From Dehalococcoidia bacterium (lineage in GTDB: Bacteria > Chloroflexota > Dehalococcoidia > Lucifugimonadales > GCA-2712585), in assembly GCA_965208725.1 (NCBI GenBank), contig CBDBPI010000002.1, positions 208,870 to 272,869 on the forward strand: a stretch of DNA of 64,000 nucleotides. The letters are read 5' to 3'. The notes beneath the pieces were generated by a model. The model was not told the origin of the DNA. It saw only the letters and a program-made list of their open reading frames with translations, and did not search any database. Within the stretch, counting starts at the first letter, position 1. Each line of letters opens with the position of its first letter. The translations under genes were made by a program, and so were the position numbers. Shown in pieces: positions 3,935 to 61,850 of this stretch.

Positions 3935-4999
<1,065 letters not shown>

Positions 5000-5087
5000 C
5001 TACCAAGAAAATAATGTTGCAACTTACATCTACTATTCTATAAAAGGAGGATGAGTCTTTCCACCGCCCAGACCCCTCTTATATATC

Positions 5088-5128
5088 CCTTCCCCCTTGA
5101 TGGGGGAAGGTTGGGATGGGGGGTGATT
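5088..5128 (+). repeat. family-A intergenic hairpin repeat, copy 1
   Basis: ccttcccccttgatgggggaaggttgggatggggggtgatt. CCTTCCCCC/GGGGGAAGG stem plus conserved TGGGATGGGGGTGA tail. Confidence 0.85.
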
Positions 5129-5154
5129 CCTTCTACCCCACAAGATTTTCTTCC

Positions 5155-5182
5155 GTAGGGACGGTTCGCGAACCCCCTCGCC
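5155..5182 (+). repeat. family-B GTAGGG-hairpin repeat, copy 1
   Basis: gtagggacggttcgcgaaccccctcgcc. Conserved GTAGGG head followed by palindrome GGTTCGCGAACC. Confidence 0.7.
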
Positions 5183-6229: not shown

Positions 6230-6316
6230 GGGAGTGCCAAACAGTATAAGCCGCGTCTCTATATGGGGTAAAGCTAGAGTCAGCTCGAAGCTGGCTTCTA
6301 AAGTAAAAGGTGCCGA

Positions 6317-6550
6317 CTACCAGAGCCAATCGCGCATACGTGCACGAGCCTCCGCCTCTCCCAATTCATATCCTTTGGCTTTCCATTCAGCGATCTTCTC
6401 GGTATTGCTCGCCGCGAACTCGTCAACAGTCTCCTCGCCTGACATAGAGGTCTTCGCTAATGCCTTAGCGAATTCATTGGCGTATACCTCGGCGTACCCC
6501 TCTACGTACCCCTCCGCGTATCGCCGTTTCAAGTATTTTTCAGCTAACAT
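6317..6550 (-). CDS. small hypothetical protein
   Basis: 77-aa ORF with no recognisable family. It lies 6 nt downstream of nth on the same strand. Coding status is uncertain. Confidence 0.3.
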   Translation of the reverse strand: MLAEKYLKRRYAEGYVEGYAEVYANEFAKALAKTSMSGEETVDEFAASNTEKIAEWKAKGYELGEAEARARMRDWLW

Positions 6551-6556
6551 GAATCA

Positions 6557-7303
6557 CTACCTCTTCGCCACAGGCAGCTCGCTGGAAGGGCATCCAAAAG
6601 CGAGGACGCACTCGTCGCACCGAGGTCGTGGGGCCTTGCACACTCGACGACCGTGGGTGATCAACGCCGTATGAAAGGCGTAGACCTGGTCTGGCTCCAC
6701 CATGACTTCCAGCAGGTCGTGGGCAGCATCGGCTCCTACCTTAGGCCCGATAAGTCCCAGCCGCTTCGACACCCGGTGTACGTGGGTGTCTACCGCCATG
6801 GCGGGCATGCCCAGCGAGAAGCAGAGAATAACCCCTGCCGACTTGGGCCCGATGCCCGGCAACTCACGAAGCCACGCCTTCGCGTCGGCCAGCGGCATGT
6901 CCGCCAGAAAATGCAGGTCCAGATTACCCCGCTTCTCCAGAATGATGTTCAGGATGGTCTTGATGCGGGGAGCCTTGATGCGAGCCAGCCCGCCGCTGCT
7001 GATGGCCTTGGAGATGCGCGGAATGCTCCCAGCCGCCACCGCCTCCAGGGTGCCAAACTCCTCCATCAGTTGACGAAAGGCCCGTCCCGAGTTGATGTCG
7101 GAGGTGTGCTGCGACAGTATCGTAAAGACCAGTTCCTCAGCGGGCTCGATGCGCCGCGCGTGCTCAAAGCGGCCATAGGGTCCCTCCAGCTTGTCAATTA
7201 TCTCCTGGGCGCTGATGGACTTGAGGATTGACTTCCTGGGGCGTCTTTTGCCAATCTGCCGTCGGCGTTTCGTCTTGGACTTGGTCTTGCTGCTTCGTGC
7301 CAC
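6557..7303 (-). CDS. nth: endonuclease III (HhH-GPD DNA glycosylase with 4Fe-4S cluster)
   Basis: 248 aa. HhH motif LPGIGPKSAGVILCF and C-terminal CKAPRPRCDECVLAFGC cluster, with a basic N-terminal extension. Confidence 0.85.
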   Translation of the reverse strand: MARSSKTKSKTKRRRQIGKRRPRKSILKSISAQEIIDKLEGPYGRFEHARRIEPAEELVFTILSQHTSDINSGRAFRQLMEEFGTLEAVAAGSIPRISKAISSGGLARIKAPRIKTILNIILEKRGNLDLHFLADMPLADAKAWLRELPGIGPKSAGVILCFSLGMPAMAVDTHVHRVSKRLGLIGPKVGADAAHDLLEVMVEPDQVYAFHTALITHGRRVCKAPRPRCDECVLAFGCPSSELPVAKR

Positions 7304-7356
7304 GATGGCCGGATTCTAGCACCCCAAAGCGGGAACCCTCAAGGGGGCATGATTCG

Positions 7357-7788
7357 CTACGTTACTGCGGGATGCAACTCCAGAATGCACTCGGTAATCA
7401 TGTCAGCGACAAGCATAGCTTCTGGGGAACCTGTCGACGGCAGTCCTTGAATTAAGCTGTGTGATGGATCAGCTCTGTGAGGTGGTCTAGAATCTTGGGG
7501 ATCATGTAGGAAGCTCAGATATCTGCCCGCGGCTGAAACGCATTCTTTCGTTGCACCAACATTCAGACGGGCAAACCTCCCATTGGGCCGAATGGTTAAC
7601 TGAATTAACTGTCTTACTTCGCTGAGCTGCGTGTCCCTGGTTTCTCCTTGAAAAAACTCCAGCCAATTGACGGAGATTCCGTTAATGCCCCCGATGAACT
7701 CTGCGGCATTGACGATACTCCTTTGAACGCTGCTGGGCTTGACGTAGCGGACTACGTGGTCAGCATTAGGAAGTTCGTCCCCGGTCAC
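7357..7788 (-). CDS. hypothetical protein (downstream gene of an overlapping pair)
   Basis: 143-aa ORF. Its GTG start overlaps the upstream stop (GTGA at 7785-7788). Visibly A+T-richer than the neighbours. No family recognised; contains the motif DPSHSLI. Confidence 0.5.
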   Translation of the reverse strand: MTGDELPNADHVVRYVKPSSVQRSIVNAAEFIGGINGISVNWLEFFQGETRDTQLSEVRQLIQLTIRPNGRFARLNVGATKECVSAAGRYLSFLHDPQDSRPPHRADPSHSLIQGLPSTGSPEAMLVADMITECILELHPAVT

Positions 7789-8192
7789 ACACCCACCAGT
7801 GCATTGAGGTCAAAGGCCCGAATAATGTGTTTCACTCCTTCAAAGGTGTCAAGACCTGCGACTCTGGAAACGAAATCGTTGGTTGTTCTGCGCTTGAAAA
7901 TCACGCATTCCACTTGCTGTTTGCCGAGAAACTGAATCCCAACGTGTCCACCGTTGGCATCCTTCCACACGGCTCGAAAATTACCGCCGTCTGTCAGAAA
8001 TAACGATGCTTCATTTCCCGTAGTCGTTGAATGAATGAAGAAATGGAAATCTTGCTCAGAGTCAAGGCTAACCTCAATTTCGTCCTCAAGAGCATATCCC
8101 TTCAGTTCCTCGATACGGCGTAGATAAGCATCCCGCACCGTGTCGGGTGTTTCGCTCGGCTGCTCTTGCTTGGATACTATCTTCTCAATCAT
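7785..8192 (-). CDS. hypothetical acidic protein (upstream gene of an overlapping pair)
   Basis: ORF 7785..8312. I prefer the ATG at 8192 (MIEKIV...), preceded by AGGAAA. No family recognised. Confidence 0.45.
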   Translation of the reverse strand: MIEKIVSKQEQPSETPDTVRDAYLRRIEELKGYALEDEIEVSLDSEQDFHFFIHSTTTGNEASLFLTDGGNFRAVWKDANGGHVGIQFLGKQQVECVIFKRRTTNDFVSRVAGLDTFEGVKHIIRAFDLNALVGV

Positions 8193-8362
8193 ATTTTTGT
8201 TTCCTGATTGACGTCTCTGTTGCAGTACAACCAGCATAGCACGACAACTTCCACTTTTGAAACCCCTGTACACATATGAATGACCTACGCCGTCAGGACC
8301 CCTCCAGCACAATCAAAAACCCACGTGTCACAATTGCGTGTTTGTGCCCTAACCCCTTGTGG

Positions 8363-8368
8363 TATAGT
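8363..8368 (+). promoter_or_regulatory. candidate -10 element (TATAGT, preceded by TGG) for tldD
   Basis: ttgtgc-N15-TATAGT about 40 nt upstream of the tldD ATG. Sequence resemblance only. Confidence 0.3.
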
Positions 8369-8408
8369 CTTACCCCATCCTATTTTGCCGTAGAAACGCC
8401 TGGCAACT

Positions 8409-9779
8409 ATGAACGACCATCTGCATGACCTAGTCGCCGACGCCCTCAAGGGCCACGACGCCCAGTACATAGAATTGCGCGTCGACCAGAACCAGTCTTC
8501 CCACCTCCGCTACAGGGGGCGGGAGCTTGAAGAGGTCAACCGCACCACCACCGGCGGCGGCTGCGTTCGCGCCCTTGCCGGCGGCGGCTGGGGTTTCGTT
8601 TCCTTCAACAGCCTCGATGGCCTGCGCGATAAAGTCGGCTCCGCCGTTACCAACGCCCGCCTTGTCGGCGGCGAACCCGTAACCCTCGCCCCCGTGGAAC
8701 CCGTCGTCGACTGCATCACCCCAACCGTCAAGAAAGACCCCTCTCAAATCTCTCTTGCCGACAAGAAAGCCATGCTCGACCAGTACGTGGAAGAAATCTG
8801 GCGCGCTGAGGGCATCTCCACCTCCACCGTGGGCTACGGCGACGCCAAACGCCGCCGCGTCTTTGCCACCTCCGAGGGCGCCTATATCGACCAGACGGTC
8901 CTCGACGTGGTGATGCGTCTCAACGCCGTGGCCCGCGACGGCGCGGAAGTCCAGCAGTCAGGCGTCAGCCTCGGCGCCGCCGGTGATTTTTCCGAAGTCG
9001 AAGACCTGCACCACGAAGCCGCCCAGGTGGGACGCCGCGCCGTTGAACTGCTGAAGGCCCCCCAGGTCAAGGGCGGTGAGTACACAGTCGTCCTCGAACC
9101 CGTTCTCGCCGGCGTTTTCATCCACGAAGCCTTCGGCCATCTCTCTGAGGCGGACCACGTCTATGAAGATGATCGCATGAAGGAATTGATGGTCCTCGGC
9201 AAGCGTTTCGGCGGCCCTCATCTCAACGTCGTCGATGGCGCAGCCGTTCCCAACCTTCGTGGCAGCTACGGCTACGACGACGAAGGCGTACCCGCCACCC
9301 GTAGCTACCTGCTCAAGGAGGGGGTTCTTGTCGGACGCCTCCACTCTCGAGAGACTGCTTCAAAGATGGGAGAAGCTCCCACCGGCAACGCCCGCGCCAT
9401 TGGCCCCCAGTTCCCGCCCATCGTCCGTATGACCAACACCTTCATCGAAGGTGGCAGCGCCTCCCCCGAAGAGATTATCGGTGACGTTAAGGACGGTCTC
9501 TACGTGGGCAACTGGTACGGCGGCATGACCAGCATGGAGCAGTTCACCTTCTCCGCCGGCGAGGCCTGGAAGATCCGAAACGGCAAAGTCGAAGAACTCT
9601 GCCGCCCAGTGCTCCTGACGGGCAACCTCTTCACCACTCTGGAAAGCCTCGACGCCGTCGCAAACGACCTGAGCATGAACCAGGGCGGCGGCTGTGGCAA
9701 GGGAGGCCAGTCCCCCCTGCCCGTGTCCAACGGCAGCCCCCACATCCGCATCCAGAGGTGCTTGATTGGCGGAAGTTAA
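8409..9779 (+). CDS. tldD: TldD-family metalloprotease
   Basis: 456 aa. HEAFGHLSEAD metal-binding motif and TldD/PmbA fold length. Confidence 0.9.
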   Translation: MNDHLHDLVADALKGHDAQYIELRVDQNQSSHLRYRGRELEEVNRTTTGGGCVRALAGGGWGFVSFNSLDGLRDKVGSAVTNARLVGGEPVTLAPVEPVVDCITPTVKKDPSQISLADKKAMLDQYVEEIWRAEGISTSTVGYGDAKRRRVFATSEGAYIDQTVLDVVMRLNAVARDGAEVQQSGVSLGAAGDFSEVEDLHHEAAQVGRRAVELLKAPQVKGGEYTVVLEPVLAGVFIHEAFGHLSEADHVYEDDRMKELMVLGKRFGGPHLNVVDGAAVPNLRGSYGYDDEGVPATRSYLLKEGVLVGRLHSRETASKMGEAPTGNARAIGPQFPPIVRMTNTFIEGGSASPEEIIGDVKDGLYVGNWYGGMTSMEQFTFSAGEAWKIRNGKVEELCRPVLLTGNLFTTLESLDAVANDLSMNQGGGCGKGGQSPLPVSNGSPHIRIQRCLIGGS

Positions 9780-11091
9780 CGAAATTCTCCAGCAGGTGTT
9801 GGAGCGCGCCAAAGCGGTCTCCGAACAGGCGGAAGTCTTCCACCTCTCCGGCTGGAGCCGCCCCGTGGAATTTGAAGCCAACCGGCTCAAGTCTCTCGTG
9901 GGACGCGACTCCTCCGGCATAGCCCTGCGCCTCATAAAGGATGGACGAATAGGCTTCTCCTCCACCACCCACTGGGACGGCGCTGAATCTCTGGTGGATA
10001 ACGCCCTCGAAACCGCCCCCTTCGGCCCCAGGGCCGCCATGGACCTTCCAGGCCCCAGCGACTTCGCTTCGATACCCCTCTACGACGCCGCCGTAGAGTC
10101 CCAGTCCCTTGAAGACATGATCCAGTTTGGCCAGCGTCTCATAGACGGCGTTCGCGCCGTTGAACCGGAACTTCTCTGCGACGCCAGCGTTTCCCGCAGC
10201 GTCTCCACCCTCCGGCTGCTGAACTCCAACGGTGCTTCCGCCCAATATACCCGCAGCGGCTTCTCCGCCTACGTCGGCGGCGCCCTCATCAAGGGCACCG
10301 ACATGCTCTTCCTCGGTGATGGCGACCGCTCCTGCAGTCCCCTTGTAGACCCGGAACCCCTCGTCGATTCCGTCCTCACCCAGCTTGAGCGAGGTCGCGA
10401 CATTGCCTCCCCCGCCTCCGGCGATCTCCCCGTCGTCTTCACCCCCCGCGGCGTGGGCGGCGCGCTCCTCTCGCCTCTCCTGGCCGGATTCAACGGCAAG
10501 TCCATCCTTCAGGGGTCTTCCCCCCTCGTAGACAAGCTGGACGAAAAGCTGTTGGACGAAAGGTTCAGCCTCTGGGATGACCCCACAATGGCCATGATTC
10601 CCGGCAGTCGCGCCTTCGACGACGAAGCTGTTCCATCAGCGAAAATGCCCCTCATCGAAAACGGCGTCATACGCAATTTCCTCTACGATCTCCAGACCGC
10701 GGGACAGGCCGGCGTCGAAAGCACCGGCAGCGCCCACCGCGGCCTCAACTCCCTCCCCTCCCCCGGCGTCAGCGTAGGCATCCTCCCTCCCGGCGACGTG
10801 GCCTTCGACGACATGATTGCCGACATTCAGGACGGTATCGTCGTTGAGCGCCTCCTGGGGGCAGGTCAGAGCAACATTCTCGCCGGTGAGTTCAACGCCA
10901 ACGTACTGCTTGGCTATCGCGTCGAAAAGGGCAAGATTACGGGCAGGCTGAAGAACACCGTCATTAACGGCAACGTCTACACGGCCCTCAAGGAACTCCG
11001 TGGCCTGGGCAGCGACGCCACCTGGCTGGGTGGTTCCTTCAAGACCCCCAGCATCTATTGCGGCGGCGTATCCGTGGCCACCCGGGAATAG
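9766..11091 (+). CDS. pmbA: PmbA/TldE-family protein
   Basis: 441 aa, TTG start overlapping the tldD end by 14 nt. TldD/PmbA-family paralogue without the HExxxH motif. Confidence 0.85.
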   Translation: MAEVNEILQQVLERAKAVSEQAEVFHLSGWSRPVEFEANRLKSLVGRDSSGIALRLIKDGRIGFSSTTHWDGAESLVDNALETAPFGPRAAMDLPGPSDFASIPLYDAAVESQSLEDMIQFGQRLIDGVRAVEPELLCDASVSRSVSTLRLLNSNGASAQYTRSGFSAYVGGALIKGTDMLFLGDGDRSCSPLVDPEPLVDSVLTQLERGRDIASPASGDLPVVFTPRGVGGALLSPLLAGFNGKSILQGSSPLVDKLDEKLLDERFSLWDDPTMAMIPGSRAFDDEAVPSAKMPLIENGVIRNFLYDLQTAGQAGVESTGSAHRGLNSLPSPGVSVGILPPGDVAFDDMIADIQDGIVVERLLGAGQSNILAGEFNANVLLGYRVEKGKITGRLKNTVINGNVYTALKELRGLGSDATWLGGSFKTPSIYCGGVSVATRE

Positions 11092-11095
11092 TAAG

Positions 11096-12037
11096 TTGAC
11101 AAACAAGCAAGACCTTTCCTTACAACATTGCCTGGAAGCCATCCGCTCCGATGAAGAAGTCCCGGAAGATACCCTGTTGTACCATCTCAGCGACCTTTCA
11201 GCATCGGAGGTCATTGACTTCGCATCTGCTTGGAAGGGCATCGCCTCCGACGGGAAAGCATCCATAATAGACCGCCTCATAGACCTCAGTAACGACAGGA
11301 CTGAACTCGACTTCAGCGCCGTTTTCCGTCGCTGCCTTCGGGACGACGAAGAGGGAGTCCGGCAGCGGGCCATCGAAGGACTCTGGGAGCACGAGGAGAG
11401 GCGGCTCATTTCACCCCTTTGCGACCGGCTTGCCAACGACCCTTCGTCATCCGTCCGCGCCGCCGCCGCCGTGGCCCTTGGCAAATTTGCCGAGCTAGCC
11501 CAGCAAGGCAAGCTGCTTCCAAAGGACGGCCCAATCATCGAAAAGTGTCTGCTGACAGCCCTTCAGGACGAAGCGGAAGAGATGTCTGTCCGCCGCCGCG
11601 CGCTAGAGTCTGCCGCCGCGCTGAACTCTCCCAAAGTGGACGACTACATACACTGGGCCTACGCCAGCGACGACATTGCTATGAAGGGCAGCGCCCTCTA
11701 CGCCATGGGCCGCACCGGAGAGCTCCGATGGCTGGAGTGTCTGGCGAAGGAGACCGGGAATCCCAGTCCACCCCTTCGGTTCGAAGCCGCTAACGCCTGC
11801 GCCCAGCTGGAAGAGGAAGACGCTGTGCCCCACCTGATACCCCTGATGGACGACGACGACTTGCAGGTGCAGCTTTCGGCAATCAGGGCCGTGGGAACCA
11901 TCGGCGGCCCGCTGGCGAAGAAAGCCCTACGCAAATGCATCAAAGACGGAGACCCTGCCGTGGAAGACGCCGCCCGCGAGTCCCTGGAAATGGTGGAAGC
12001 CATGGAGGACGTCTACAGCTTCCACTACCTACGCTAA
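11096..12037 (+). CDS. HEAT-repeat protein
   Basis: Repeated ...VR..A..ALG... helical repeats. The ORF is open from 11000, but the region upstream of 11092 overlaps pmbA. First plausible start is the TTG at 11096, with no internal Met for more than 150 codons. Confidence 0.6.
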   Translation: MTNKQDLSLQHCLEAIRSDEEVPEDTLLYHLSDLSASEVIDFASAWKGIASDGKASIIDRLIDLSNDRTELDFSAVFRRCLRDDEEGVRQRAIEGLWEHEERRLISPLCDRLANDPSSSVRAAAAVALGKFAELAQQGKLLPKDGPIIEKCLLTALQDEAEEMSVRRRALESAAALNSPKVDDYIHWAYASDDIAMKGSALYAMGRTGELRWLECLAKETGNPSPPLRFEAANACAQLEEEDAVPHLIPLMDDDDLQVQLSAIRAVGTIGGPLAKKALRKCIKDGDPAVEDAARESLEMVEAMEDVYSFHYLR

Positions 12038-12046
12038 CTCCCCGCT

Positions 12047-13075
12047 CTAATAGAACACGTCCGTCAGCGCGTACAACTCCATGTCCAACTCGTGCATCTT
12101 CCCCAGAATCTCCTGCAGATTCGTAGTCGTGATTTGCCCACCCTGCAAGCCGACCATCACGCCGAAATTCCCCGCCTGGACCTGATTCACCGCTTCCACT
12201 CCCAGCCTCGTCGCCAGCACCCTGTCAAAGGCCGAAGGGCTGCCTCCCCGCTGCAGATGGCCCAGCACTACCTCCCGCGTCTCGAATCCGGTGCGGGCCT
12301 CCAGTTCCACGGCCAGCCGGTGTCCGATGCCCCCCAGCCGCACGTGTCCGAACTCGTCCAGCTGGTCGCTGCTGGTCACCTCCGCTCCCCAGTCGGCGCA
12401 TTTCGCGCCCTCCGACACCACCACAAGGCTGAACATCTTCCCAAGTTCTTCGTGACGCCTCCTGATTCGTTGCAGCAGGTCCGTCAACGAGAAGGGTTGC
12501 TCGGGTATCAACACCGCGTGCGCCGCTCCCGCAAGACCCCCAACCGTGGCGAGCCATCCCGCGTGCCTGCCCATCACCTCCACCACCATAATCCTGTCGT
12601 GGGCCTCCGCCGTCGGATGCAGCTTGTCCAGCGAGTCCCTGACCACCTCCACGGCCGTATCGAAACCGATGCAATACTCGGTGCCGTAAAGGTCATTGTC
12701 TATGGTCTTAGGCACCCCCACCAGATTCACGCCCTCCCCCGACAGCCGCGCCGCTACACCCAGCGTATCCTCGCCGCCGATGGGCACCATCGCGTCCACC
12801 CCAAGCTTCGCCAGCTGCCTCTTCACCGTTGCCGGACCATCCTCCCGCGTATAGGGGTTGGTGCGCGAGGAACCCAGAATCGTCCCGGCCCGCGGGAGAA
12901 TCCCCGTGACTGCGGGTATGTCCAGAGGCATCCATGAACCCGTCAGGGCCCCCAGCCACCCGTTGCGAAATCCTATGACCTCTATCCCCTCCGCCACTGA
13001 CTTCCTGGTAATGGCGCGGATGGCCGCATTCAAGCCGGGGGCGTCGCCCCCTCCCGTCAAAACTCCGATACGCAT
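12047..13075 (-). CDS. pfkA: 6-phosphofructokinase (ATP- or PPi-dependent)
   Basis: MRIGVLTGGGDAPGLNAAIRAI N-terminus. The ATG at 13075 is preceded by GGGGAGG. Confidence 0.9.
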   Translation of the reverse strand: MRIGVLTGGGDAPGLNAAIRAITRKSVAEGIEVIGFRNGWLGALTGSWMPLDIPAVTGILPRAGTILGSSRTNPYTREDGPATVKRQLAKLGVDAMVPIGGEDTLGVAARLSGEGVNLVGVPKTIDNDLYGTEYCIGFDTAVEVVRDSLDKLHPTAEAHDRIMVVEVMGRHAGWLATVGGLAGAAHAVLIPEQPFSLTDLLQRIRRRHEELGKMFSLVVVSEGAKCADWGAEVTSSDQLDEFGHVRLGGIGHRLAVELEARTGFETREVVLGHLQRGGSPSAFDRVLATRLGVEAVNQVQAGNFGVMVGLQGGQITTTNLQEILGKMHELDMELYALTDVFY

Positions 13076-13195
13076 GGCAGACCTCCCCGGAGGGCGTTGA
13101 AGTTGGAACAATCAGACTGCGCCCTACACCCTCGATGATAGGCGATTCTGCCCGGAAGATTCCAGACAGATTGCATCGAGGATACCCTGGGAATT

Positions 13196-13834
13196 TCAGT
13201 CGGTGATGACTTCCACCCGCAGGTTTTGGCCTAAGGCCTTGAGTGCCTTCTGCACAAGGCTCACGTGGGAGCGGTGATCCGGGTTCGTAAGTTTTCTCAC
13301 GGCGGACTCGCTGACTCCCAGCCTCCGGGCCAGCTCAACCTTGGTTATGCGCTGCTGCTTCATGGCTGCGTAGAGTCCCAGCTTTGCAGCGACAACCACG
13401 GGCACAGACACCAACCGTTGGTCGCCTGCCACAGCACTGGGTGTCGGAATGTCCCACTTCTCGTGCACGTATCCCGCCAGGGCTGTGGCAAGGGCGTCTT
13501 CGGCCATCGTCATCGCATCGTCCCGGTCATTAGCTCCTGTAATTGCTTCCGGTATGTCAGGGAACGTGGCCACGAAACCACCGTCATCGTCCCGGGTTAA
13601 CTGGCATGGATAGGCGTAAATCATGGCTCGAAACTCCCTTCTGTCAATATCCAACTGACGCAGCATAGCTGCTAATAGTCCCTTACCCAGCTCGCCCCGC
13701 TTTATTGTAGTGAATCGCACGCCAAGGTAGATCCTACCGTGGCTCCCTTTCCCCCACGCCGGATCGAAGCGGAAGCATTGTCCTGTCTTACGAGCGTAGG
13801 ATCTGATTCGTCTAAGGAATTCTCGGCCAGTCAA
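13196..13834 (-). CDS. hicAB: HicA toxin domain and HicB antitoxin (HicB-N + XRE HTH) in one reading frame
   Basis: Residues 1-68 carry the HicA/YcfA pattern (...WGKGSHGRIYLG...LRQLDI). Residues 71-212 carry the HicB N-domain (MIYAYPCQLTRDDDGGFVATFPDIPEAITGA) plus HTH (ITKVELARRLGVSESAVRKL). There is no stop between them. Confidence 0.75.
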   Translation of the reverse strand: MTGREFLRRIRSYARKTGQCFRFDPAWGKGSHGRIYLGVRFTTIKRGELGKGLLAAMLRQLDIDRREFRAMIYAYPCQLTRDDDGGFVATFPDIPEAITGANDRDDAMTMAEDALATALAGYVHEKWDIPTPSAVAGDQRLVSVPVVVAAKLGLYAAMKQQRITKVELARRLGVSESAVRKLTNPDHRSHVSLVQKALKALGQNLRVEVITD

Positions 13835-14005
13835 AAGAGATTATCGCACCTTTTGGTGCGTTTAACAAGATAGAACATGAGTCACGATAGTGTATCATTG
13901 ATGTTGCCCCTGTCAATCTCTTTGTTGACCGTCGGCATCCCCCTTGGTAGTATGAGCAACAACCCCGACCCGGCTATTCCCACCCGCCACCGCAGGAGAA
14001 AAACC

Positions 14006-14512
14006 ATGGAGCAGCAGGAAACTGTCCTTCACCCCCACGCCATCATCTCGGAGCTCAGGAAGAACGACGTCACCCACATAGTGTGGCTCCCAGACAGCGA
14101 GACCAACTTCATGTACGAGCAGCTCATGGCGGACCCGACCCTTGAGCTCGTCCCCGTCTCCAGGGAGGGCGAGACCATGGCCATCGCCGCCGGTCTCTGG
14201 GTAGGAGGAAAGAAACCCGTCGCCCTCATCCAGAACACCGGCATCTTCGAGTCCGGCGACTCCATCCGCGGCCTGGGGCTAGACGTCGACCAGCCCCTGG
14301 TGATGCTCATCGGCTATCGCGGCTGGGACCGGCACGGGATCACCCGCGACTCCGCCGCCAAGTACACCGAGCACATCATCCACGCCTGGGGCATTAACTT
14401 TTACCTGGTGGAAACGGATGACGACGCTTATTTGATTTCCAGAGCTATGAACGAGGCCAAGCGGGATTCCAAGCCCGTCGCCGTCCTCGTCGGCACCGAG
14501 TTCGGCGCCTAA
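14006..14512 (+). CDS. comD: sulfopyruvate/phosphonopyruvate decarboxylase alpha-like subunit (TPP enzyme PYR domain)
   Basis: ATG at 14006 after AGGAG. The VTHIVWLPDSETN...PVSREGETMAIAAGLW...ALIQNTG pattern is typical of ComD-like proteins. Confidence 0.7.
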   Translation: MEQQETVLHPHAIISELRKNDVTHIVWLPDSETNFMYEQLMADPTLELVPVSREGETMAIAAGLWVGGKKPVALIQNTGIFESGDSIRGLGLDVDQPLVMLIGYRGWDRHGITRDSAAKYTEHIIHAWGINFYLVETDDDAYLISRAMNEAKRDSKPVAVLVGTEFGA

Positions 14513-14525
14513 ACCCCGTCCACAT

Positions 14526-14558
14526 GTCATTCTGAGGAGCGAAGCGACGAAGAATCTC
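14526..14558 (+). repeat. family-C GTCATTC hairpin repeat variant
   Basis: gtcattctgaggagcgaagcgacgaagaatctc between the comD-like and comE-like genes. GTCATTC head, AGAATC closing arm. Confidence 0.55.
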
Positions 14559-14681
14559 GTTGGCGAAAGAGCAATCTGCCAATAGGAAAATGTCTGGGAG
14601 CTTGACCACTAAGTCCCTTTGGCGCAGACCCTGACCAACGCCGAATTTGGCCTCCGAGGGAAAGAAAAAGGGAAAAAAGAA

Positions 14682-15269
14682 ATGATTGATAATCTGGAAG
14701 CCTGCCGCGTAATTGAGCAGAATCGGAACGATGCCATAGTCGTCACCACCATGGGCTCCGGCAACCCCCGCTTCGGCTGGCCCATCGTCTCCAGGAATGA
14801 AGCAATGGATGTGCCCGTGGGCGGCGCCATGGGAAAGGCCTCCTCCTTTGCCCTGGGCCTCGCCCTCGCCCAGCCCGATCGAAGCGTCCTGATACTCGAC
14901 GGCGACGGCAGCCTCGTTATGAACCTCGGCACCCTCACTACCATCAGCGAAAGAGCCCCCGCCAACCTCTACCACTTCGTCTTCGACAACGGCTGTTACG
15001 CCGTCACCGGCGGCCAGCCCATCCCCGCCGACGGCAAGGTCAGCTTCAAGGAGATGGCGTCCGGAGCCGGTTACGCCGCCGCCTACGAGTTCGACGACCT
15101 GGAAGACTTGGCCAGCAGCGTGGGCGACATTCTCCAGAAGAAGGGGCCAATCCTCGTAAACCTCAAGATTACCCCGGAGATAGAAAACACCCCCATCGGC
15201 CAGCGGCCCAGGCCCAAGCGAAACACCTACGACGCGGTCCAGGAACTGCGGCAGGCCCTGTCCGACTAA
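14682..15269 (+). CDS. comE: sulfopyruvate/phosphonopyruvate decarboxylase beta-like subunit (TPP-binding PP domain)
   Basis: Intact TPP/Mg motif LDGDGSLVMN...FDNG. I prefer the ATG at 14682 (MIDNLEA); the ORF is open from 14619. Confidence 0.7.
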   Translation: MIDNLEACRVIEQNRNDAIVVTTMGSGNPRFGWPIVSRNEAMDVPVGGAMGKASSFALGLALAQPDRSVLILDGDGSLVMNLGTLTTISERAPANLYHFVFDNGCYAVTGGQPIPADGKVSFKEMASGAGYAAAYEFDDLEDLASSVGDILQKKGPILVNLKITPEIENTPIGQRPRPKRNTYDAVQELRQALSD

Positions 15270-16690: not shown

Positions 16691-16732
16691 CCTTCCCCCT
16701 TGACGGGGGAAGGTTAGGATGGGGGTGAAATT
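16691..16732 (+). repeat. family-A repeat, copy 3
   Basis: ccttcccccttgacgggggaaggttaggatgggggtgaaatt. Confidence 0.85.
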
Positions 16733-34383: not shown

Positions 34384-34851
34384 TTAAGTCCCCAGCTTGT
34401 CCAGCTCCCCGAGGATCTCCTCCGGGGTAGGAAGCGAACCCGGGGCGTACTCCCGCCGGAACTGCACCGTGCCGCCCTTGTCAACGATGATGATGGCCCG
34501 TTTGGGCGTGCCTATGGCGTCGTTGTAAAGACCGTAGGCCCTGGACATCTTTCCGTGGGGATGAAAATCCGCCAGCAGAGGATATTGAACGTCCCCCATG
34601 GACTCCGACCATGCGCGGTGGGAATGCTGGCTGTCGCAGCTGACGCCCAACACCTGGGCGCCTCTCTCCTCAAACTGGGCGTTCGCCCCGTTGAATGAGG
34701 AGACTTGGTTCCCTCAACCGCCTGTAAAGTCGAAAACGTAGAAGGAAAGGACTACGTTCTTGTCTCCCCGGAACTGGCCAAGGGAGACCTGGTTGCCCGA
34801 CTGGTCGGGCAGTGTGAAGTCCGGCGCTGATTGTCCGATTTCGGCTGCCAT
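34384..34851 (-). CDS. AhpE-like 1-Cys peroxiredoxin with in-frame TGA (selenocysteine) at the peroxidatic position
   Basis: Hand translation from the ATG at 34851 (after AGGAGG) gives MAAEIGQSAPDFTLPDQSGNQVSLGQFRGDKNVVLSFYVFDFTGG-TGA-GNQVSSFNGANAQFEERGAQVLGVSCDS... It runs in frame into ORF 34384..34653. The TGA is at 34714-34716. Confidence 0.8.
34668..34700 (-). promoter_or_regulatory. candidate bacterial SECIS hairpin
   Basis: CCUCAuucAACgGGGC-GAAC-GCCCaGUUUGAGG begins 14 nt after the UGA. The apical loop is about 30 nt downstream. Confidence 0.5.
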
Positions 34852-42299: not shown

Positions 42300-43142
42300 T
42301 TGGAGCATGGCATGAGTGAACGGACCGATTTCGAACACCCCGAATTTCTGACAAGCACTGACTGGCTGGGCGAGCACCTGGGAGACCCGGGCATCCGCGT
42401 GATTGACTGCGACGTTCCCGACCAGTACCAGCGCGCCCACATCCCCGGATCCGTCTTCCAGGAAGACCACTATCAGAAGGACCCGGACACCAACCGTCTC
42501 CACATCTTCGGCCCCTACGGCTTCAAGCAGCTTGCCGAGTCCCTCGGCATCGGCGACGATACCCTCGTCGTCGCCTACGACAACTCTCGCGGCCTTTACG
42601 CCGCCCGCCTCTGGTGGGCGCTCCACCACTACGGCCACACCAGCGTCAAGGTCATGGACGGGGGCTGGCGCAAGTGGCTCTCCGAAGGACGCCCCATAAC
42701 CGACAAACCCACCAGATGTACTCCCGACGTGACCTTCACCCCGCGCTTGGACGACTCCATGCTGGTCACTGCAGACCAGCTTATGCATGACATGAACAGC
42801 CCCGACGTAGTCGTCTGGGACGTTAGGAGCCGCGGCGAGTACGAAGGCACCACCACCCGGGGCAACCGCAGACCGGGCCGCATCGCCGGCGCCGTTCATC
42901 TGGAATGGCTGGAGCTTGTCGACGGCCGGACCCACCTGCTCAAGCCCGCCGATGAAATCCGCCGTATCCTGCAGGCCAACGGCATCACCCCTGACAAACG
43001 CATCGACGCTCATTGACAGGCCGGAATTCGTGCGGCGCACGGTACCTTCGTCCTCAAGCTTCTCGGCTACCCCGATGCCCGCAACTACGACGGCTCATGG
43101 GCCGAATGGGGCAACCGCGACGACACCCCCATAGAACTGTAA
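42300..43142 (+). CDS. two-domain rhodanese sulfurtransferase with in-frame TGA (selenocysteine) at the catalytic Cys position
   Basis: ORF 42300..43016 ends ...KRIDAH-TGA. The same frame continues [44 protein letters not shown] (43140-43142). This is the conserved active-site loop CxxGxR plus the C-terminal YDGSWxEW of SseA/TST-type rhodaneses. Confidence 0.8.
43028..43042 (+). promoter_or_regulatory. candidate bacterial SECIS hairpin apex
   Basis: UCGUGC-GGC-GCACGG starts 12 nt after the UGA (43014-43016). The G-containing apical loop is 18-20 nt downstream. Confidence 0.45.
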
Positions 43143-43147
43143 ACACT

Positions 43148-43187
43148 CCTTCCCCCTTGACGGGGGAAGGCTGGGATGGGGGTGATT
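43148..43187 (+). repeat. family-A repeat, copy 6
   Basis: ccttcccccttgacgggggaaggctgggatgggggtgatt. Confidence 0.85.
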
Positions 43188-44406: not shown

Positions 44407-45150
44407 CTACAACCCCCAGTCTAGAATCACCATATGCGTCTCCCTCGGTCCGTGGGCTCCTATTACCAGCGTCTGCTCAATGTCCGCTGTCCGGCTGGGT
44501 CCCGTGATGAAATTCATGTAGCTGCCCGCGTCAACCCCGTCCCGCAGGTACGCCAGCCTTCGAAGCAGGTACAAGTCGTCCAGGCCTTCCAGCGTTTGTG
44601 AAGGCTTCACCAGCGCCACGTGCACCGGCGGCAGCAGCGACGTCACCCGGCTCACGCCCTGCCGCGGCAGAATGACGACACTGCCCGTCTCCGCGATGGC
44701 GTAGTCAACCCCCGTGACGCCCAAATCCGCGTCTGCAGGGTTGAAGCTTCCCGCGCTTTCGTCCTCCCGCGCCATCACCTGCACCGTCGCGCCCAACGAC
44801 GAAAGCGCGTCGTCCAGCGGCACGTCGTCAAACACCTCCTGCACCGACCGCACCACCCGCCGCGCCTTCATCTTCTGCGCCAACTGGTACACGTACCCCA
44901 CGGCATCCTCCACCCCCGCCGCCCGGTGCACCACCCAGCCTCGGAGTGCAGCCACCCTCGCCAGTTCGTCCACGTTAGCCCGTTGATTGGCGGACAACCG
45001 CTCCATCATCGTCCGCTCCCTCTCCGCAACCGACGCTCGTTCCTCAAGCATCCGGGCATAGGGCTGCTCCGGCGGCCCCGCTTTCCTCCCCAACGCCTCC
45101 CTCACCGACGCTATAAACTGGTCCGGCGGCGTCCCCAACGTCTCCCTCAC
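44407..45150 (-). CDS. lutC: LutC/YkgG (LUD-domain) lactate utilisation protein C
   Basis: 247 aa. LUD-domain pattern and operon position after lutB (ATGA-type overlap). Confidence 0.8.
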   Translation of the reverse strand: MRETLGTPPDQFIASVREALGRKAGPPEQPYARMLEERASVAERERTMMERLSANQRANVDELARVAALRGWVVHRAAGVEDAVGYVYQLAQKMKARRVVRSVQEVFDDVPLDDALSSLGATVQVMAREDESAGSFNPADADLGVTGVDYAIAETGSVVILPRQGVSRVTSLLPPVHVALVKPSQTLEGLDDLYLLRRLAYLRDGVDAGSYMNFITGPSRTADIEQTLVIGAHGPRETHMVILDWGL

Positions 45151-46592
45151 CGTCCCTCATCCTCCAGCCGCTCTGACCAGATCTGACGGAAGCTCTTGGG
45201 CGCCAGCGCCGGCATGTCCCGCGTCTGCGTCCAGCGGGAGAAAGGTGGCAGCGGCATCCATCGAATGAACCTCCCCCTTGAAAACGGCCACTGCGCCAGC
45301 AATCCCAACCTCCGAACCATCCCCAGCAGGCGCGGACTGCTCATCAGTCGACGATATCCCATCGACATCATCCGGTCGGCTAGAGAAGCCTTCTTTGGAC
45401 TCAACTCAGAACCTTCCGAAAGCTGGGACCGCAGCTTCAACAGCATGTGCGGAATGTTTATCTTGATCGGGCAAACGTCCTTGCAGGCCCCGCAAAGGCT
45501 GGATGCGTTTGGCAGGTCCTTGCTTCGGTCCAGTCCAACCAGCACCGGCGACACCACCGCACCGATCGGTCCGGGGTAGACCCAGCCGTAGGAGTGTCCC
45601 CCCACTTTCCGGTACACAGGGCACGTGTTCAGGCACGCACCGCACCGGATGCAGAATAACGCCTCCCTCAGGTCCGGGTCCACCAGCAGCCTTGAGCGTC
45701 CGTTGTCCACGATAATCAGGTGGTACTCCTCCGGCCCGTCTTCGTCCTCCGGACGCTTCGGCCCGTAGACGTGGGTGACGTAGCTGCTGATTCTCTGGCC
45801 CGTGGCCGCCCGTGGCAATAACCGGATAAAGATAGCCAGGTCTTCCATGGAAGGCACCACCTTCTCCATCCCCGTTATCGACACCAGCACTCGCGGCACC
45901 GAGGTACAGAAGCGTCCATTGCCCTCGTTGGTTATCAGCGTCACCGTGCCCGTCTCCGCCACCAGGAAGTTCGCCCCCGTGATGCCCATGTCGGCGCTCA
46001 CCAGCTTCTCCCGCAGCACCTCCCGCGCCGCTCCCGCCATCGCCTCGATGTCTTGCAAATTCGGACGATTAATCTTCTCTCCGAAAAGCTCGGAGACCTC
46101 TTCCTTCGACTTGTGCATCGCCGGCGCGATGATGTGGAAGGGCGTTTCCTCCGCAAGCTGGATGATGTACTCCCCCAGGTCCGTCTCCACCGGCTCGACG
46201 CCCATCTTCTCCAGAAACGGGTTCAACCCCATCTCCTCCGACACCATCGACTTGCTCTTGATGGCCAGCTTCAAGCCCCGTGTCTGCGCTATCCGCCCCA
46301 CGATAGCCCGCGCCTCCTCCGCGTCCCTCGCGAAGTGCACATACCCGCCGTTCGCCATCACACGTTCGCGAAGCATCTCCAGGTAGTAGTCCAGATTGTC
46401 CAGAGTGTGACGCTTGATCTCCCGCGCCTGCAGCCGTAGCTCCTCCCACCGCTCGGGCGAGATCTCCTCTATGGCCTCGGCCCTCGCCCCGTCGAAGGTG
46501 CCCATGGAGCGTCCCAGGTATGACTGGAGCTTGGCGTTGGCCAGCACCTTCGCGGAGGCTCGACGAAATTCCTGCGTTTTTACCTCAGCCAT
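45147..46592 (-). CDS. lutB: LutB/YkgF iron-sulfur lactate utilisation protein B
   Basis: 481 aa. CIRCGACLNTCPVY and CGACKDVCP ferredoxin motifs. Confidence 0.85.
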   Translation of the reverse strand: MAEVKTQEFRRASAKVLANAKLQSYLGRSMGTFDGARAEAIEEISPERWEELRLQAREIKRHTLDNLDYYLEMLRERVMANGGYVHFARDAEEARAIVGRIAQTRGLKLAIKSKSMVSEEMGLNPFLEKMGVEPVETDLGEYIIQLAEETPFHIIAPAMHKSKEEVSELFGEKINRPNLQDIEAMAGAAREVLREKLVSADMGITGANFLVAETGTVTLITNEGNGRFCTSVPRVLVSITGMEKVVPSMEDLAIFIRLLPRAATGQRISSYVTHVYGPKRPEDEDGPEEYHLIIVDNGRSRLLVDPDLREALFCIRCGACLNTCPVYRKVGGHSYGWVYPGPIGAVVSPVLVGLDRSKDLPNASSLCGACKDVCPIKINIPHMLLKLRSQLSEGSELSPKKASLADRMMSMGYRRLMSSPRLLGMVRRLGLLAQWPFSRGRFIRWMPLPPFSRWTQTRDMPALAPKSFRQIWSERLEDEGR

Positions 46593-46663
46593 GATTCTTC
46601 CCCTTGAAGGGGACCAGTCGTCCTTATCGCGAGTGGTTCAAGACGTGTCATTCGGCCCAACAT

Positions 46664-47404
46664 CTAAGAATCACTCCACAGAATCTCGGCCAAGTGTCGA
46701 GCGTCTACTTTCGCCCCGCGTCGTCTTAACCCGCCCCGAATCTGCATCAGGCAGCTTGCGTCGCAGGCCGTCACCGTCGACGCCTCGCTCTTGACCACGT
46801 TGTCCACTTTGTCGTCCAGCATCGCCTGCGAGATTCCAGGATACTTCACCGAGAATGTCCCCCCGAAGCCGCAGCACGTCTCCGCGTCATCAAGTGGTGC
46901 GTACTCCAACCTCTTCACCGCCTTCAGCAGCGTCACCGGCTCTTCCTTTGCTTCCAGTTCCCTGAGCAAATGACACGAAGGATGATAGGTGACCTTCCCG
47001 TCATGCTCTGCTCCCACGTCCGCCACACCCAGCACTTTCACGAGAAACTGCGAGAACTCGTAGACCTTCCCGCTCAGCGCCTTGGCCTTCGGCCCGTATG
47101 TGGAATCCCCGCGAAAAATATCGGGGTAGAAGACCTTCATCATCGAAGCGCAGGAACCCGACGGTACAACAACGTACTCGCTGTCCTCGAAGCCATCGAG
47201 AACCCGTTTGCCAAGTTCCGCCGCGTCCCGGCGAAAGCCGGAGTTGAATAGCGGCTGTCCGCAGCAGGTCTGGTCCGGCGGAAATTCCACCTGCACACCT
47301 TGACGTCGCAGTACGCCGACCACCGCCTCGCCAACCTCGGGAAAAAGCTGGTCCACCAGGCATGTGACAAACAGAGAAGCGCGAATTGGGGAGGAATCAG
47401 CCAT
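46664..47404 (-). CDS. lutA: LutA/YkgE (CCG-domain Fe-S oxidoreductase)
   Basis: 246 aa. FVTCLVD...CCGQP and CCGFGG CCG motifs. Confidence 0.85.
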   Translation of the reverse strand: MADSSPIRASLFVTCLVDQLFPEVGEAVVGVLRRQGVQVEFPPDQTCCGQPLFNSGFRRDAAELGKRVLDGFEDSEYVVVPSGSCASMMKVFYPDIFRGDSTYGPKAKALSGKVYEFSQFLVKVLGVADVGAEHDGKVTYHPSCHLLRELEAKEEPVTLLKAVKRLEYAPLDDAETCCGFGGTFSVKYPGISQAMLDDKVDNVVKSEASTVTACDASCLMQIRGGLRRRGAKVDARHLAEILWSDS

Positions 47405-47489: not shown

Positions 47490-47586
47490 TGGCGGGAGTG
47501 GGAGGGAGTCGAACCCTCCCATCCCGATTGTGACGGGATACAACGGATTTGAAGTCCGCGAGAGCCACCGGGCCCCATCCACTCCC
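47490..47586 (-). tRNA. selC: tRNA-Sec (anticodon UCA)
   Basis: Hand-folded. 8-bp acceptor GGGAGTGG/CCACTCCC plus discriminator G plus encoded CCA. 6-bp D stem GGGGCC/GGCTCT. Anticodon arm GCGGA-CTTCAAA-TCCGT. Long variable arm ATCCCG-TCACAAT-CGGGAT. 5-bp T arm GAGGG-TTCGACT-CCCTC. This is the bacterial 8/5 Sec architecture. Confidence 0.93.
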
Positions 47587-47676: not shown

Positions 47677-48006
47677 TTACGCTGCCAGCGCCGACTCTAT
47701 CTTCTTCCTCAACTGCCCCTTCGGCACCGCGCCTACAATCTGCTCCACCGGCTTGCCGCCCTTGAAGATAAGCAACGCCGGTATGCTGCGAATGCCGTAG
47801 GTCACCGCCGTTATCGGACTGGAGTCCACGTCCACCTTGGCGAAGTCCATAACCCCGTCCATCTCCTCAGCCAGTTCGTCCACAATCGGGGAAATCATCT
47901 TGCACGGAACGCACCACTCTGCCCAGAAGTCCACCAGTACGGGCTTATCCGCTTCCACTACCTTTTCGTTGAATTCAGCATCGCTCACGGCAAAGGGTTT
48001 CGCCAT
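47677..48006 (-). CDS. trxA: thioredoxin
   Basis: WAEWCVPCK active site. The ATG at 48006 follows GGAGG. The ORF-track extension to 48093 is unlikely to be translated. Confidence 0.9.
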   Translation of the reverse strand: MAKPFAVSDAEFNEKVVEADKPVLVDFWAEWCVPCKMISPIVDELAEEMDGVMDFAKVDVDSSPITAVTYGIRSIPALLIFKGGKPVEQIVGAVPKGQLRKKIESALAA

Positions 48007-48144
48007 TGGTTCCTCCAGTGTAAGGTTATTACATACATCTTCAGCGGGGTATCCGTCCCCTCTGATATTCCAGTGTATACCTGCGTCCGCCATCGGTCAA
48101 TCGAGATGCTTTCGACGCCGAAGAATTGAGGGTGAAGCTACACC

Positions 48145-49989
48145 TTGTCTGACAACCTGAACGGAGCTGGAAGGACCGGCCTCCTTGGCAGAAAACTTCG
48201 TTTGCGCCCCGACTCGTGGGGACGCTTGGGCGAAGCCACCGTCGTGGTGGAAGGCCACCGCGTCTTTGTCTTCGGCGCCATCCCCGGCGAGGAAGTGCTG
48301 GCCGAGGTTTTCCGTGAACGAAGACGCTACGTCGCCGCCCGCGTCCTGGAGGTCATCGAACCCTCCCCCCTCCGCGTCGACCCCCCATGTCCCTACTTCG
48401 GCCCCTGCACCGGCTGTCAGTGGCAGCACGTCGACTACAACGCGCAGCTTCAGCATAAGTCCGACGCCGTGACCGACGCCCTGCAGCGCATCGGCGGTTT
48501 CTCAAACCCTCCCGTTCGCTCTGCCGTCCCTTCCCCCGACCAATTCGGCTACCGCAACCACGCCCGATTCACCATCGGCAAGGACGGCTCCCTCGGTTTC
48601 GTCAACCGCGAGACTCGACAGCACGTGACCGTCGACAACTGCCTCCTCATGGAACGGGGCGTCAACGACGTTCTGAGGAAACTGCAGGGACATTGCGCTG
48701 AGACTACCCAGCTCTCCGTACGTTGGGGCGTCAACACCGGCGATTACCTCGTCCAGCCCACCCTCAAGGAGGCCGACGTCCCTGTATCCACCGGCCAGAA
48801 GCGCTATGTGGAGACCGTCCATGGCCGCTCCTTCCGCATCGCCTCCCCCTCTTTCTTCCAGGTTAACATAAAGCAGTTGGAGGTAATGGTAGACCTCGTT
48901 AAGGACGGCCTAAGACTCTCAGGCAACGAGACCCTCGTCGACGCCTACGCCGGCGTTGGCACCTTCGCCCTGTTGCTCGCTCCCTACGCCAGGCGAATAA
49001 TCGCCATCGAAGACTCTCCCGCCGCCGTCGAGGATGCCAGGGCCAACGCCGAAGGCCTCTCCAACGTCGAGTTCGTCCTTGGACGCACCGAGCAGGTCCT
49101 GCCCGAACTTGAAGCGTCGCCCGACGGCGTCATCCTGGACCCCTCCCGCACGGGCTGTCATCCCTCCGCTCTCAAGGCGCTTGCCGAATTGAAACTCCGC
49201 CGAATAGTCTACGTCTCCTGCGATCCTGCAACCCTCGCCCGCGACCTGAAAATCCTCTGCAGGGACGTTTTCCTTCTGGAAAGCGTAACCCCCGTCGACA
49301 TGTTCCCCCAGACCCACCACGTCGAGTGCATCGCCGTCCTCGCCCTCCGTCGCCCGTTGGACGGATTGACGCTCGCCTCTTCATCGCCTCGCAGACGCGA
49401 GCTGATGGCCGGCCTCGACGCACCCTTCGACGCATTGACACCCGACGTGGAAGAACGCGCTGACCCTGGAGAATCCCCCGAAGACACCGTACTCCGCCTC
49501 GCCCTCGACAAAGCCCAGGCCGTTGCCGAGAAGCGCCCCAACCGTCCCGTCGTCGGCGCCGACACCCTCGTCGTGCTGGATGGTCAAGCGTTGGGCAAAC
49601 CCGCTGACACTGCCCAGGCCCGGCAGATGTTGATGAGCCTCCGTGGACGCGTCCACCGCGTTCTCACTGGCGTCGCCGTCATCGACGGCGCAACCGGCAA
49701 AGCCCGCACCGCCCTGTGCGAAAGCCGCGTCCTCATGAGAAACTACTCCGCTTCCGAAATCGACCAGTACATCGCCTCAGGCAGCCCCTTCGACAAGGCT
49801 GGCGGCTACGGAGTCCAGGACCGAACCTTGAATCCCGTCGCTCAAGTCGACGGATGCCGCGCCAACGTCATTGGCCTTCCACTTTGCATCATGGCGCGGC
49901 TGCTCAAAGAGTCGGGATTTAACGTAGAATCTCTGTCGCTGCCTGCAGAGTGCCGGCGACATCTTCGAAAACAAGGGAAAAAAGAATGA
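48145..49989 (+). CDS. fusion of RumA/RlmD-type (uracil-5)-RNA methyltransferase (TRAM + Fe-S + MTase) with a Maf nucleotide pyrophosphatase domain
   Basis: N-terminal ~400 aa: CPYFGPCTGCQWQH cluster and the MTase motifs DAYAGVGTF and DPSRTG. C-terminal ~205 aa: LASSSPRRRELM, GADTLVVLDG and KAGGYGVQD Maf motifs. Confidence 0.8.
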   Translation: MSDNLNGAGRTGLLGRKLRLRPDSWGRLGEATVVVEGHRVFVFGAIPGEEVLAEVFRERRRYVAARVLEVIEPSPLRVDPPCPYFGPCTGCQWQHVDYNAQLQHKSDAVTDALQRIGGFSNPPVRSAVPSPDQFGYRNHARFTIGKDGSLGFVNRETRQHVTVDNCLLMERGVNDVLRKLQGHCAETTQLSVRWGVNTGDYLVQPTLKEADVPVSTGQKRYVETVHGRSFRIASPSFFQVNIKQLEVMVDLVKDGLRLSGNETLVDAYAGVGTFALLLAPYARRIIAIEDSPAAVEDARANAEGLSNVEFVLGRTEQVLPELEASPDGVILDPSRTGCHPSALKALAELKLRRIVYVSCDPATLARDLKILCRDVFLLESVTPVDMFPQTHHVECIAVLALRRPLDGLTLASSSPRRRELMAGLDAPFDALTPDVEERADPGESPEDTVLRLALDKAQAVAEKRPNRPVVGADTLVVLDGQALGKPADTAQARQMLMSLRGRVHRVLTGVAVIDGATGKARTALCESRVLMRNYSASEIDQYIASGSPFDKAGGYGVQDRTLNPVAQVDGCRANVIGLPLCIMARLLKESGFNVESLSLPAECRRHLRKQGKKE

Positions 49990-61812: not shown

Positions 61813-61850
61813 CCTTCCCCCTCGACGGGGGAAGGCTGGGATGGGGGTGA
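61813..61850 (+). repeat. family-A repeat, copy 8
   Basis: ccttccccctcgacgggggaaggctgggatgggggtga. Confidence 0.85.

Follow-up and report, generated by a model that had tools for sequence, protein, structure and literature searches.

A rhodanese gene in the window (the whole 64,000-nt stretch of Dehalococcoidia DNA analyzed here) has a UGA in place of its catalytic cysteine codon and is in all likelihood a genuine, mis-annotated selenoprotein gene, belonging to a family that had already been predicted computationally. Very probably, as judged from sequence comparison, positions 42312 to 43142 encode a cytoplasmic two-domain rhodanese of the COG2897/SseA type whose nucleophile is selenocysteine (Sec) rather than Cys, the UGA being recoded by means of a hairpin SECIS. 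Sequence analysis demonstrates that the apparently recoded UGA is conserved at the catalytic position, that the codons downstream behave as translated sequence, that the putative SECIS hairpin is conserved, and that the predicted Sec machinery of the genome is complete.

The open reading frame (ORF) listed for this gene ends at an in-frame TGA (43014 to 43016); when the TGA is read as U, the same frame runs for 41 more codons to a TAA at 43140 to 43142. A first-pass annotation of the window had described this stop and continuation, together with a downstream hairpin and a nearby tRNA-Sec gene, and all of these are present in the sequence. The ORF tool placed the start at a TTG (42300), with an ATG at 42312 as the alternative; the ATG is likely to be the true start because a GGAG lies 6 nt before it and because orthologues align from that Met. 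As the same annotation expected of standard gene callers, the gene is present in the public protein sets we examined only as a truncation of 234 amino acids (aa) that lacks the catalytic residue. Its neighbors lie on the minus strand: a glyoxalase-like gene upstream, and a gene of unknown function and a HEPN gene downstream. The features of the gene and its product are as follows.

42302 to 42305, plus strand: probable Shine-Dalgarno sequence GGAG, read from the sequence, upstream of ATG 42312.
42312 to 43142, plus strand: full coding sequence of the predicted Sec-containing tandem rhodanese, 276 aa including U235, with its TAA stop at 43140 to 43142.
42354 to 42683, plus strand: N-terminal rhodanese domain, residues 15 to 124 (best Pfam stretch; alignment to bovine rhodanese and 1UAR).
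42774 to 43121, plus strand: C-terminal, catalytic rhodanese domain, about residues 155 to 270 (alignment to 1UAR, 1RHD, and 8AGF; invariant columns).
43014 to 43016, plus strand: UGA, predicted selenocysteine codon U235, at the catalytic-Cys position (alignment to Cys homologues and solved rhodaneses).
43014 to 43034, plus strand: active-site loop U-Q-A-G-I-R-A, in which Q236, G238, I239, R240, and A241 are invariant in the orthologue alignment.

The Pfam Rhodanese model matches the 276-aa protein in two stretches (3.9e-33), and the best relatives of known structure (T. thermophilus 1UAR, bovine rhodanese, M. tuberculosis SseA/CysA, and E. coli SseA) are all tandem rhodaneses. Alignments to 1UAR, 1RHD, and 1URH extend over the full length and both domains, with that to 1UAR (E = 2e-49) covering residues 7 to 274; matches of this extent suffice to establish the fold and the site of the catalytic residue. 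In the solved rhodaneses, the catalytic Cys (vyCriaers in 1UAR, atCrkGvta in bovine TST) lies opposite position 235, which also aligns with the catalytic Cys of M. tuberculosis SseA and with the Cys of homologues of about 50% identity that read C-Q-[AG]-G-I-R-A-A. Two further claims of the first-pass annotation, that the TGA falls at the active-site Cys and that the frame beyond it supplies the missing end of the C-terminal rhodanese domain, are borne out by these alignments, the Cys of SseA/TST rhodaneses and Cys homologues lying exactly there and the 1UAR match reaching residue 274. In tandem rhodaneses the N-terminal domain is inactive and the catalytic residue resides in the C-terminal one; here, Asp90 of the N-terminal domain (..VVAYD..) occupies the place equivalent to the U of the C-terminal domain (..IDAHU..), and by analogy the N-terminal domain is presumed to be noncatalytic. 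Because U-Q-A-G-I-R departs from both the TST (CRKGVT) and the MST (CG[ST]GVT) loop signatures, and because the NCBIfam 3-MST equivalog scores only 130.3 bits, below its cutoff of 250, the protein is best classified as its own subfamily of the COG2897 group, assignable to neither TST nor MST proper.

We propose that the UGA at 43014 to 43016 would be recoded during translation, with CGUGC-GGC-GCACG, located 12 to 28 nt downstream inside the coding sequence, acting as the SECIS. The hairpin would recruit SelB·GTP·Sec-tRNA(Sec), and the ribosome would insert Sec and then complete the catalytic domain by translating the 41 codons that remain. U235 would take sulfane sulfur from a donor (thiosulfate or a persulfide) to give an enzyme Se-S(-) intermediate, whose sulfur would then be passed to a thiophilic acceptor (a thiol, cyanide, or sulfite). 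Catalysis would most likely follow the usual rhodanese double-displacement (ping-pong) course, with the Se-S(-) adduct replacing the Cys persulfide; we infer Se incorporation at U235, the substrates, and the Se-S intermediate alike. Clustering of flanking ORFs in about 76 neighborhoods yielded no universal operon partner, only synteny at the level of lineages: acetyl-CoA-synthetase-like genes flank the rhodanese gene in 26 of these loci, and genes for a transporter of the Na/sulfate-symporter family do so in 14. Among sequencing runs holding the gene, our search returned only unclassified ones, and none that is clearly an RNA run.

An inserted Sec might instead serve selenium trafficking, Se(0) being carried as a perselenide-type adduct for SelD, a role that we consider improbable. 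In older biochemical work, rhodaneses were able to bind selenium in vitro as a persulfide-like adduct; this, the loop that lacks both the TST and the MST signatures, and the many selenoproteins of the host lineage would all suit such a role. However, in none of the about 76 neighborhoods is the gene linked to selD, selA, or any other Se gene, and Cys forms with the same loop are found in genomes without selA (G034 and G055), which argues that the function of the family is independent of the Sec trait.

Sulfur transfer through a Sec nucleophile, the reading we prefer, is accompanied by a complete set of genes for making and inserting Sec. One of these lies within the window.

47490 to 47586, minus strand: selC, tRNA-Sec with anticodon UCA (ARAGORN; Rfam RF01852, 74.2 bits against a gathering score of 47).

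The tRNA-Sec gene, which the first reading had placed 4.4 kb away, is 4.47 kb from the UGA. In profile searches of the genome (2.88 Mb in 2 contigs), selA (541.6 bits), selB (329.4 bits, with its C-terminal part also matched), and selD (379.2 bits) each exceeded the cutoff, so that selA, selB, selD, and tRNA-Sec are all encoded. The selD gene (L011, G000:C1:509570-510493) itself contains Sec (U in ...NCAGUASKF...), in a G-U-x-x-K context at the known Sec/Cys site of SelD. Within the order, 53 of 61 relatives have selA, including 39 of the 43 that carry the TGA form of the rhodanese; of the four TGA-form relatives without selA, three are metagenome-assembled genomes (MAGs) that are 70 to 81% complete and one (G006) is 95% complete. 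Conversely, four genomes that have a homologue and no selA (G034, G035, G045, and G055) have no TGA form, only Cys forms.

The surroundings of selC and another part of the window hold features of separate interest. A LutA/LutB/LutC-like lactate-utilization operon (44407 to 47404, minus strand; CCG, LUD plus 4Fe-4S, and LUD domains) adjoins selC, on the other side of which lies trxA (47677 to 48093). A probable second selenoprotein, Prx/BCP-like, is encoded at 34384 to 34851 (minus strand), with a UGA at 34714 to 34716; its ...FDFTGGUGNQ... carries the TxxU motif of known Sec peroxiredoxins.

As described by Zhang, Fomenko & Gladyshev (2005, PMC1088965), a bacterial SECIS is a stem-loop just past the UGA whose small apical loop includes a G. 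Two structures were considered downstream of the rhodanese UGA.

43028 to 43042, plus strand: putative SECIS core hairpin, with loop GGC (43034 to 43036) and a stem formed by 43028 to 43033 and 43037 to 43042, within codons I239 to G244.
43018 to 43054, plus strand: candidate extended lower SECIS stem, present in the minimum-free-energy (MFE) structure.

The hairpin, UCGUGC-GGC-GCACGG, begins at the 12th nt past the UGA, as first described, and several observations support its interpretation as a bacterial SECIS that overlaps the active-site loop codons. In an alignment of the 42 orthologues from the order (see below), its 6-bp helix (alignment columns 15 to 20 with 24 to 29) is paired in 97.5% of cells, versus 16 to 63% for slid controls, and compensatory changes occur at 2 of the 6 pairs: G19-C25 is replaced by U-A in two lineages, and C15-G29 by A-U or G-C in several. 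The canonical 5-bp core is found in 111 of 122 distinct Sec sequences but in only 1 of 33 Cys sequences, this one being a very recent Cys allele. In every one of the 122 Sec sequences, a stem of 5 bp or more is capped by a 3- to 4-nt loop. Their apical loops nearly always begin with G (GGC in 97, GUC in 13, GGG in 4, and GUG in 3), and the loop starts at nt 21, counted from the U of UGA, in 110 of the 122. The 11 Sec sequences that lack the canonical core have alternative hairpins of 5 to 8 bp a few nt further downstream (CGUGCUG-GUCA-CAGCACG, GCGCA-GUC-UGCGC, and GCGAACA-GUG-UGUUCGU).

Codon use over the hairpin also distinguishes the two forms. The Arg is encoded by CGT in 113 of 122 Sec forms versus 4 of 33 Cys forms (Fisher p = 2e-19), the first Ala by GCG in 107 of 113 versus 8 of 27 (p = 2e-12), and the second Ala by GCG in 108 of 108 versus 12 of 31 (p = 1e-15); these p values are not corrected for phylogeny, and the pattern holds down to about 36% identity. 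In Sec forms, synonymous sites beside the hairpin vary freely and those within it are frozen, whereas Cys forms encode the same I-R-A-A motif with codons scattered over all possibilities. Fold energy was rejected as SECIS evidence: the MFE of the hairpin region (-15.1 kcal/mol) is not exceptional compared to shuffles (z = +0.99), nor does the MFE of the region separate Sec from Cys forms (p = 0.16), being uninformative because the region is GC-rich; the case for a SECIS therefore rests on conservation. At permissive E-values, Rfam matched no SECIS family and only tRNA-Sec. The extended lower stem may possibly belong to the SECIS, although only 72% of its cells are paired and RNAalifold drops it.

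When contig depth was summed over the metagenomes that hold the gene, it jumped 20- to 70-fold exactly over 43013 to 43043, which contains the UGA and the SECIS hairpin, and over 43075 to 43105; the nucleotides of both segments are evidently nearly unchanged in many other members of the community.

It is very unlikely that the UGA is decoded as something other than Sec, either by near-cognate suppression (Trp or Cys) or under a reassigned code. UGA is the leakiest of the stop codons, which gives suppression some plausibility. Nevertheless, TGA is the true terminal stop of several orthologues, and thus the standard code applies; the site is that of the catalytic nucleophile, where rhodaneses are not known to function with any residue other than Cys or Sec; the combination of a SECIS-like hairpin geometry and frozen synonymous sites is peculiar to TGA forms; and the selABCD set is complete, with absence of selA going together with the Cys form.

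Insertion of Sec at the UGA is also what the phylogenetic distribution of the codon favors. When 61 genomes of the order were searched in all six frames, 42 full-length orthologues, of 36 to 94% identity, were recovered from 42 of them. Each has exactly one in-frame TGA, always about 42 codons ahead of the real stop and always in the Cys column of the Cys homologues; none of the 13 genomes of the genus lacks it. Across the class, an evenly drawn sample of 150 other genomes contained an orthologue in 72 and the TGA form in about 43. A scan of GTDB species representatives gave at least 589 relatives; the best 80 of these loci, all from Dehalococcoidia, SAR202, or Chloroflexota MAGs, have 78 TGA and 4 TGC codons at 82 sites. 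The orthologues do not end at the TGA, which is followed in them by a conserved segment of about 41 codons. Pairwise diversity among orthologues in codons +11 to +41 is 0.087, 0.102, and 0.422 at the first, second, and third codon positions, respectively, from which it follows that the 3' part is under protein-level purifying selection in this frame. Conservation of the TGA and the hairpin over >100 orthologues is far beyond chance.

Given this distribution, we attach very little probability to the TGA being a true stop that leaves either a pseudogene or a truncated 234-aa protein without a catalytic center, with the 41 codons as an untranslated remnant. Standard gene callers do give exactly that 234-aa product in public protein sets. 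Yet the downstream frame is conserved as protein, as the codon-position diversities just cited show, even in orthologues of only about 36% identity; its end is always about 42 codons beyond a TGA that is always at the catalytic-Cys column; and the frameshifts and further stops that a remnant would gather across the class were not seen in our searches of order and class genomes.

There is a negligible chance that the organism really makes a Cys enzyme and that the TGA stands in place of TGC/TGT through faulty sequencing or assembly or as a rare variant: while TGC and TGA alleles only 2 nt in 846 apart occur in a related population (L145/L146 versus L138), so that one base separates the forms, TGA is found in all 13 genomes of the genus and in 42 of the order, the Sec-specific hairpin codons are present, Logan contigs from three runs cover 42300 to 43174 with 0 differences (all three runs belong to a single sample, from which the assembly probably originated, so that their independence is only partial), and a diverged related strain in another sample keeps the TGA.

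The TGC and TGA alleles deserve a closer description. They belong to a 90%-identity cluster with 12 protein members, of which 8 are 234-aa truncations and 4 are full-length proteins of 281 aa. The idea that the 281-aa members are U-to-C conversions of annotated selenoproteins was rejected, because the DNA reads TGC: in a related species-level population, the truncated member L138 (L138:3596), checked as DNA, reads TGA, while two of the four full-length members, L145 (L145:281-1126) and L146 (L146:1501-2346), which are two independent assemblies, were verified to read TGC. One of the two differences between L138 and L145/L146 is the third base of the Sec/Cys codon, and the Cys allele retains the SECIS hairpin. 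The alleles look like a segregating Sec/Cys polymorphism, and the presence of such nearly identical TGA and TGC forms in one population argues that Sec/Cys exchange is ongoing. On a FastTree tree of 166 distinct sequences, the Sec/Cys state changed at least 10 times, versus 27 to 33 times when the labels were shuffled.

Some Dehalococcoidia have tandem paralogues of the rhodanese about 1 kb apart, either both Sec or one Cys and one Sec; examples are L130 (3693 and 4657), L139 (3696 and 4704), and L148 (G076:C60, with adjacent Cys and Sec copies). The SECIS of these tandem paralogues differs (GCGCA-GUC-UGCGC) and is about 6 nt further downstream.

A more far-reaching scenario, which we offer tentatively and consider rather unlikely, would be that the Sec form is both prevailing and probably long-standing in Dehalococcoidia/SAR202, with at least about 10 switches to or from Cys and with nearly identical TGA and TGC alleles coexisting, so as to constitute a natural replacement experiment still under way, perhaps tracking selenium supply; the real role of the protein might then perhaps be in persulfide or selenium trafficking. 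Were this so, the rhodanese gene would be a tractable system in which to measure what Sec buys a sulfurtransferase; the nearly identical Sec and Cys alleles allow direct comparison.

Two other features of the window are recorded here. An intergenic repeat of 32 nt starts 12 nt past the rhodanese stop (43154 to 43185) and recurs at 16697 to 16728 and at 61819 to 61850, that is, in three copies versus 0 expected; a hairpin associated with it (CUUCCCCC-UUGAC-GGGGGAAG) spans 43148 to 43168. In metagenome contigs its depth is 4,000 to 15,000, versus 5 to 16 for the rhodanese gene, and it appears to be a dispersed REP-like element common to the community. At 48145 to 49989 (plus strand), a single ORF of 614 aa encodes an RlmD/RumA-type m5U methyltransferase (TIGR00479, 309.8 bits) joined to a complete Maf nucleotide pyrophosphatase domain (PF02545, 5e-53).

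Among solved rhodaneses, 1UAR, the M. tuberculosis SseA/CysA-type enzymes (3HZU and 3AAX), and 1RHD align with our protein over the full length (E = 2e-49 to 1e-35) and share its catalytic position and the C-terminal YDGSW.EW motif; Arg at loop position +5 is as in bacterial CRI[AG]ERS enzymes. They differ in having a Cys nucleophile and the loops C-R-K-G-V-T or C-R-I-G-E-R, as opposed to Sec and U-Q-A-G-I-R. Cys paralogues of the CRIGERS type (L062 to L064) coexist in some genomes of the order and form a separate lineage. Two NCBIfam models also describe Sec-containing rhodanese domains, but both differ from ours in architecture and Sec position: NF041203 (rhodanese_LYCAU, CxU, single domain), which our protein matches with only 39.4 bits against a cutoff of 115, and NF045694 (TsoB, a rhodanese/DsbD fusion), which it does not match. 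NCBIfam has no model specific for the tandem Sec form, which accounts for the truncated annotations. SAR202 is an abundant deep-ocean and sponge-associated lineage, and with only 234-aa stumps in the protein sets, metabolic reconstructions of SAR202 will overlook a sulfurtransferase or assess it wrongly.

The family is not new, and the gene is a mis-annotated further member rather than a new kind of system. "Rhodanese-related sulfurtransferase" (COG2897, 3 sequences) was listed in Table 1 of the Sargasso Sea study as a new selenoprotein family; the authors drew its SECIS in Fig. 3 and pointed out that the finding links selenium to sulfurtransferase function (Zhang, Fomenko & Gladyshev 2005, PMC1088965). 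The 2008 analysis of the GOS data reported 8 Sec sequences of cd01449 and 1 of COG2897, compared with Cys homologues numbering in the thousands (PMC2398784). Reviews list the Sec family under "COG2897 (SseA)" and "form 4, UxxG," and state that no Sec-dependent rhodanese has been characterized biochemically (PMC9312934, PMC13188914); for the published COG2897 Sec sequences we found neither a taxonomic assignment nor biochemistry (PMC1088965, PMC2398784), and our literature search returned nothing relevant that links SAR202 with selenocysteine or with this family.

The first-pass annotation had called Sec-containing rhodaneses rare and uncharacterized. They are indeed rare in global metagenome counts and known from prediction only, but rarity does not extend to Dehalococcoidia/SAR202, where, on the genome counts given above, the Sec form is the common one. 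Our protein resembles the published COG2897 Sec family in its tandem architecture, in Sec at the catalytic Cys, in the UxxG motif (here U-Q-A-G), in marine metagenomic origin, in having widespread Cys homologues, and in a small hairpin past the UGA whose apical loop contains G. The likeness is one of architecture and described motif; the published representatives AACY01016424, MQG53192.1, and MCY3690685.1 were not among the accessions listed for cluster members. The published family comprised 3 (Sargasso) and 8 + 1 (GOS) sequences, whereas ours is placed in Dehalococcoidia/SAR202. To that record we add a taxonomic home for the Sec form and its high frequency in Dehalococcoidia, as well as a precisely defined and comparatively validated SECIS lying over active-site codons, alternative hairpins in side lineages, and coexisting, nearly identical TGA and TGC alleles.
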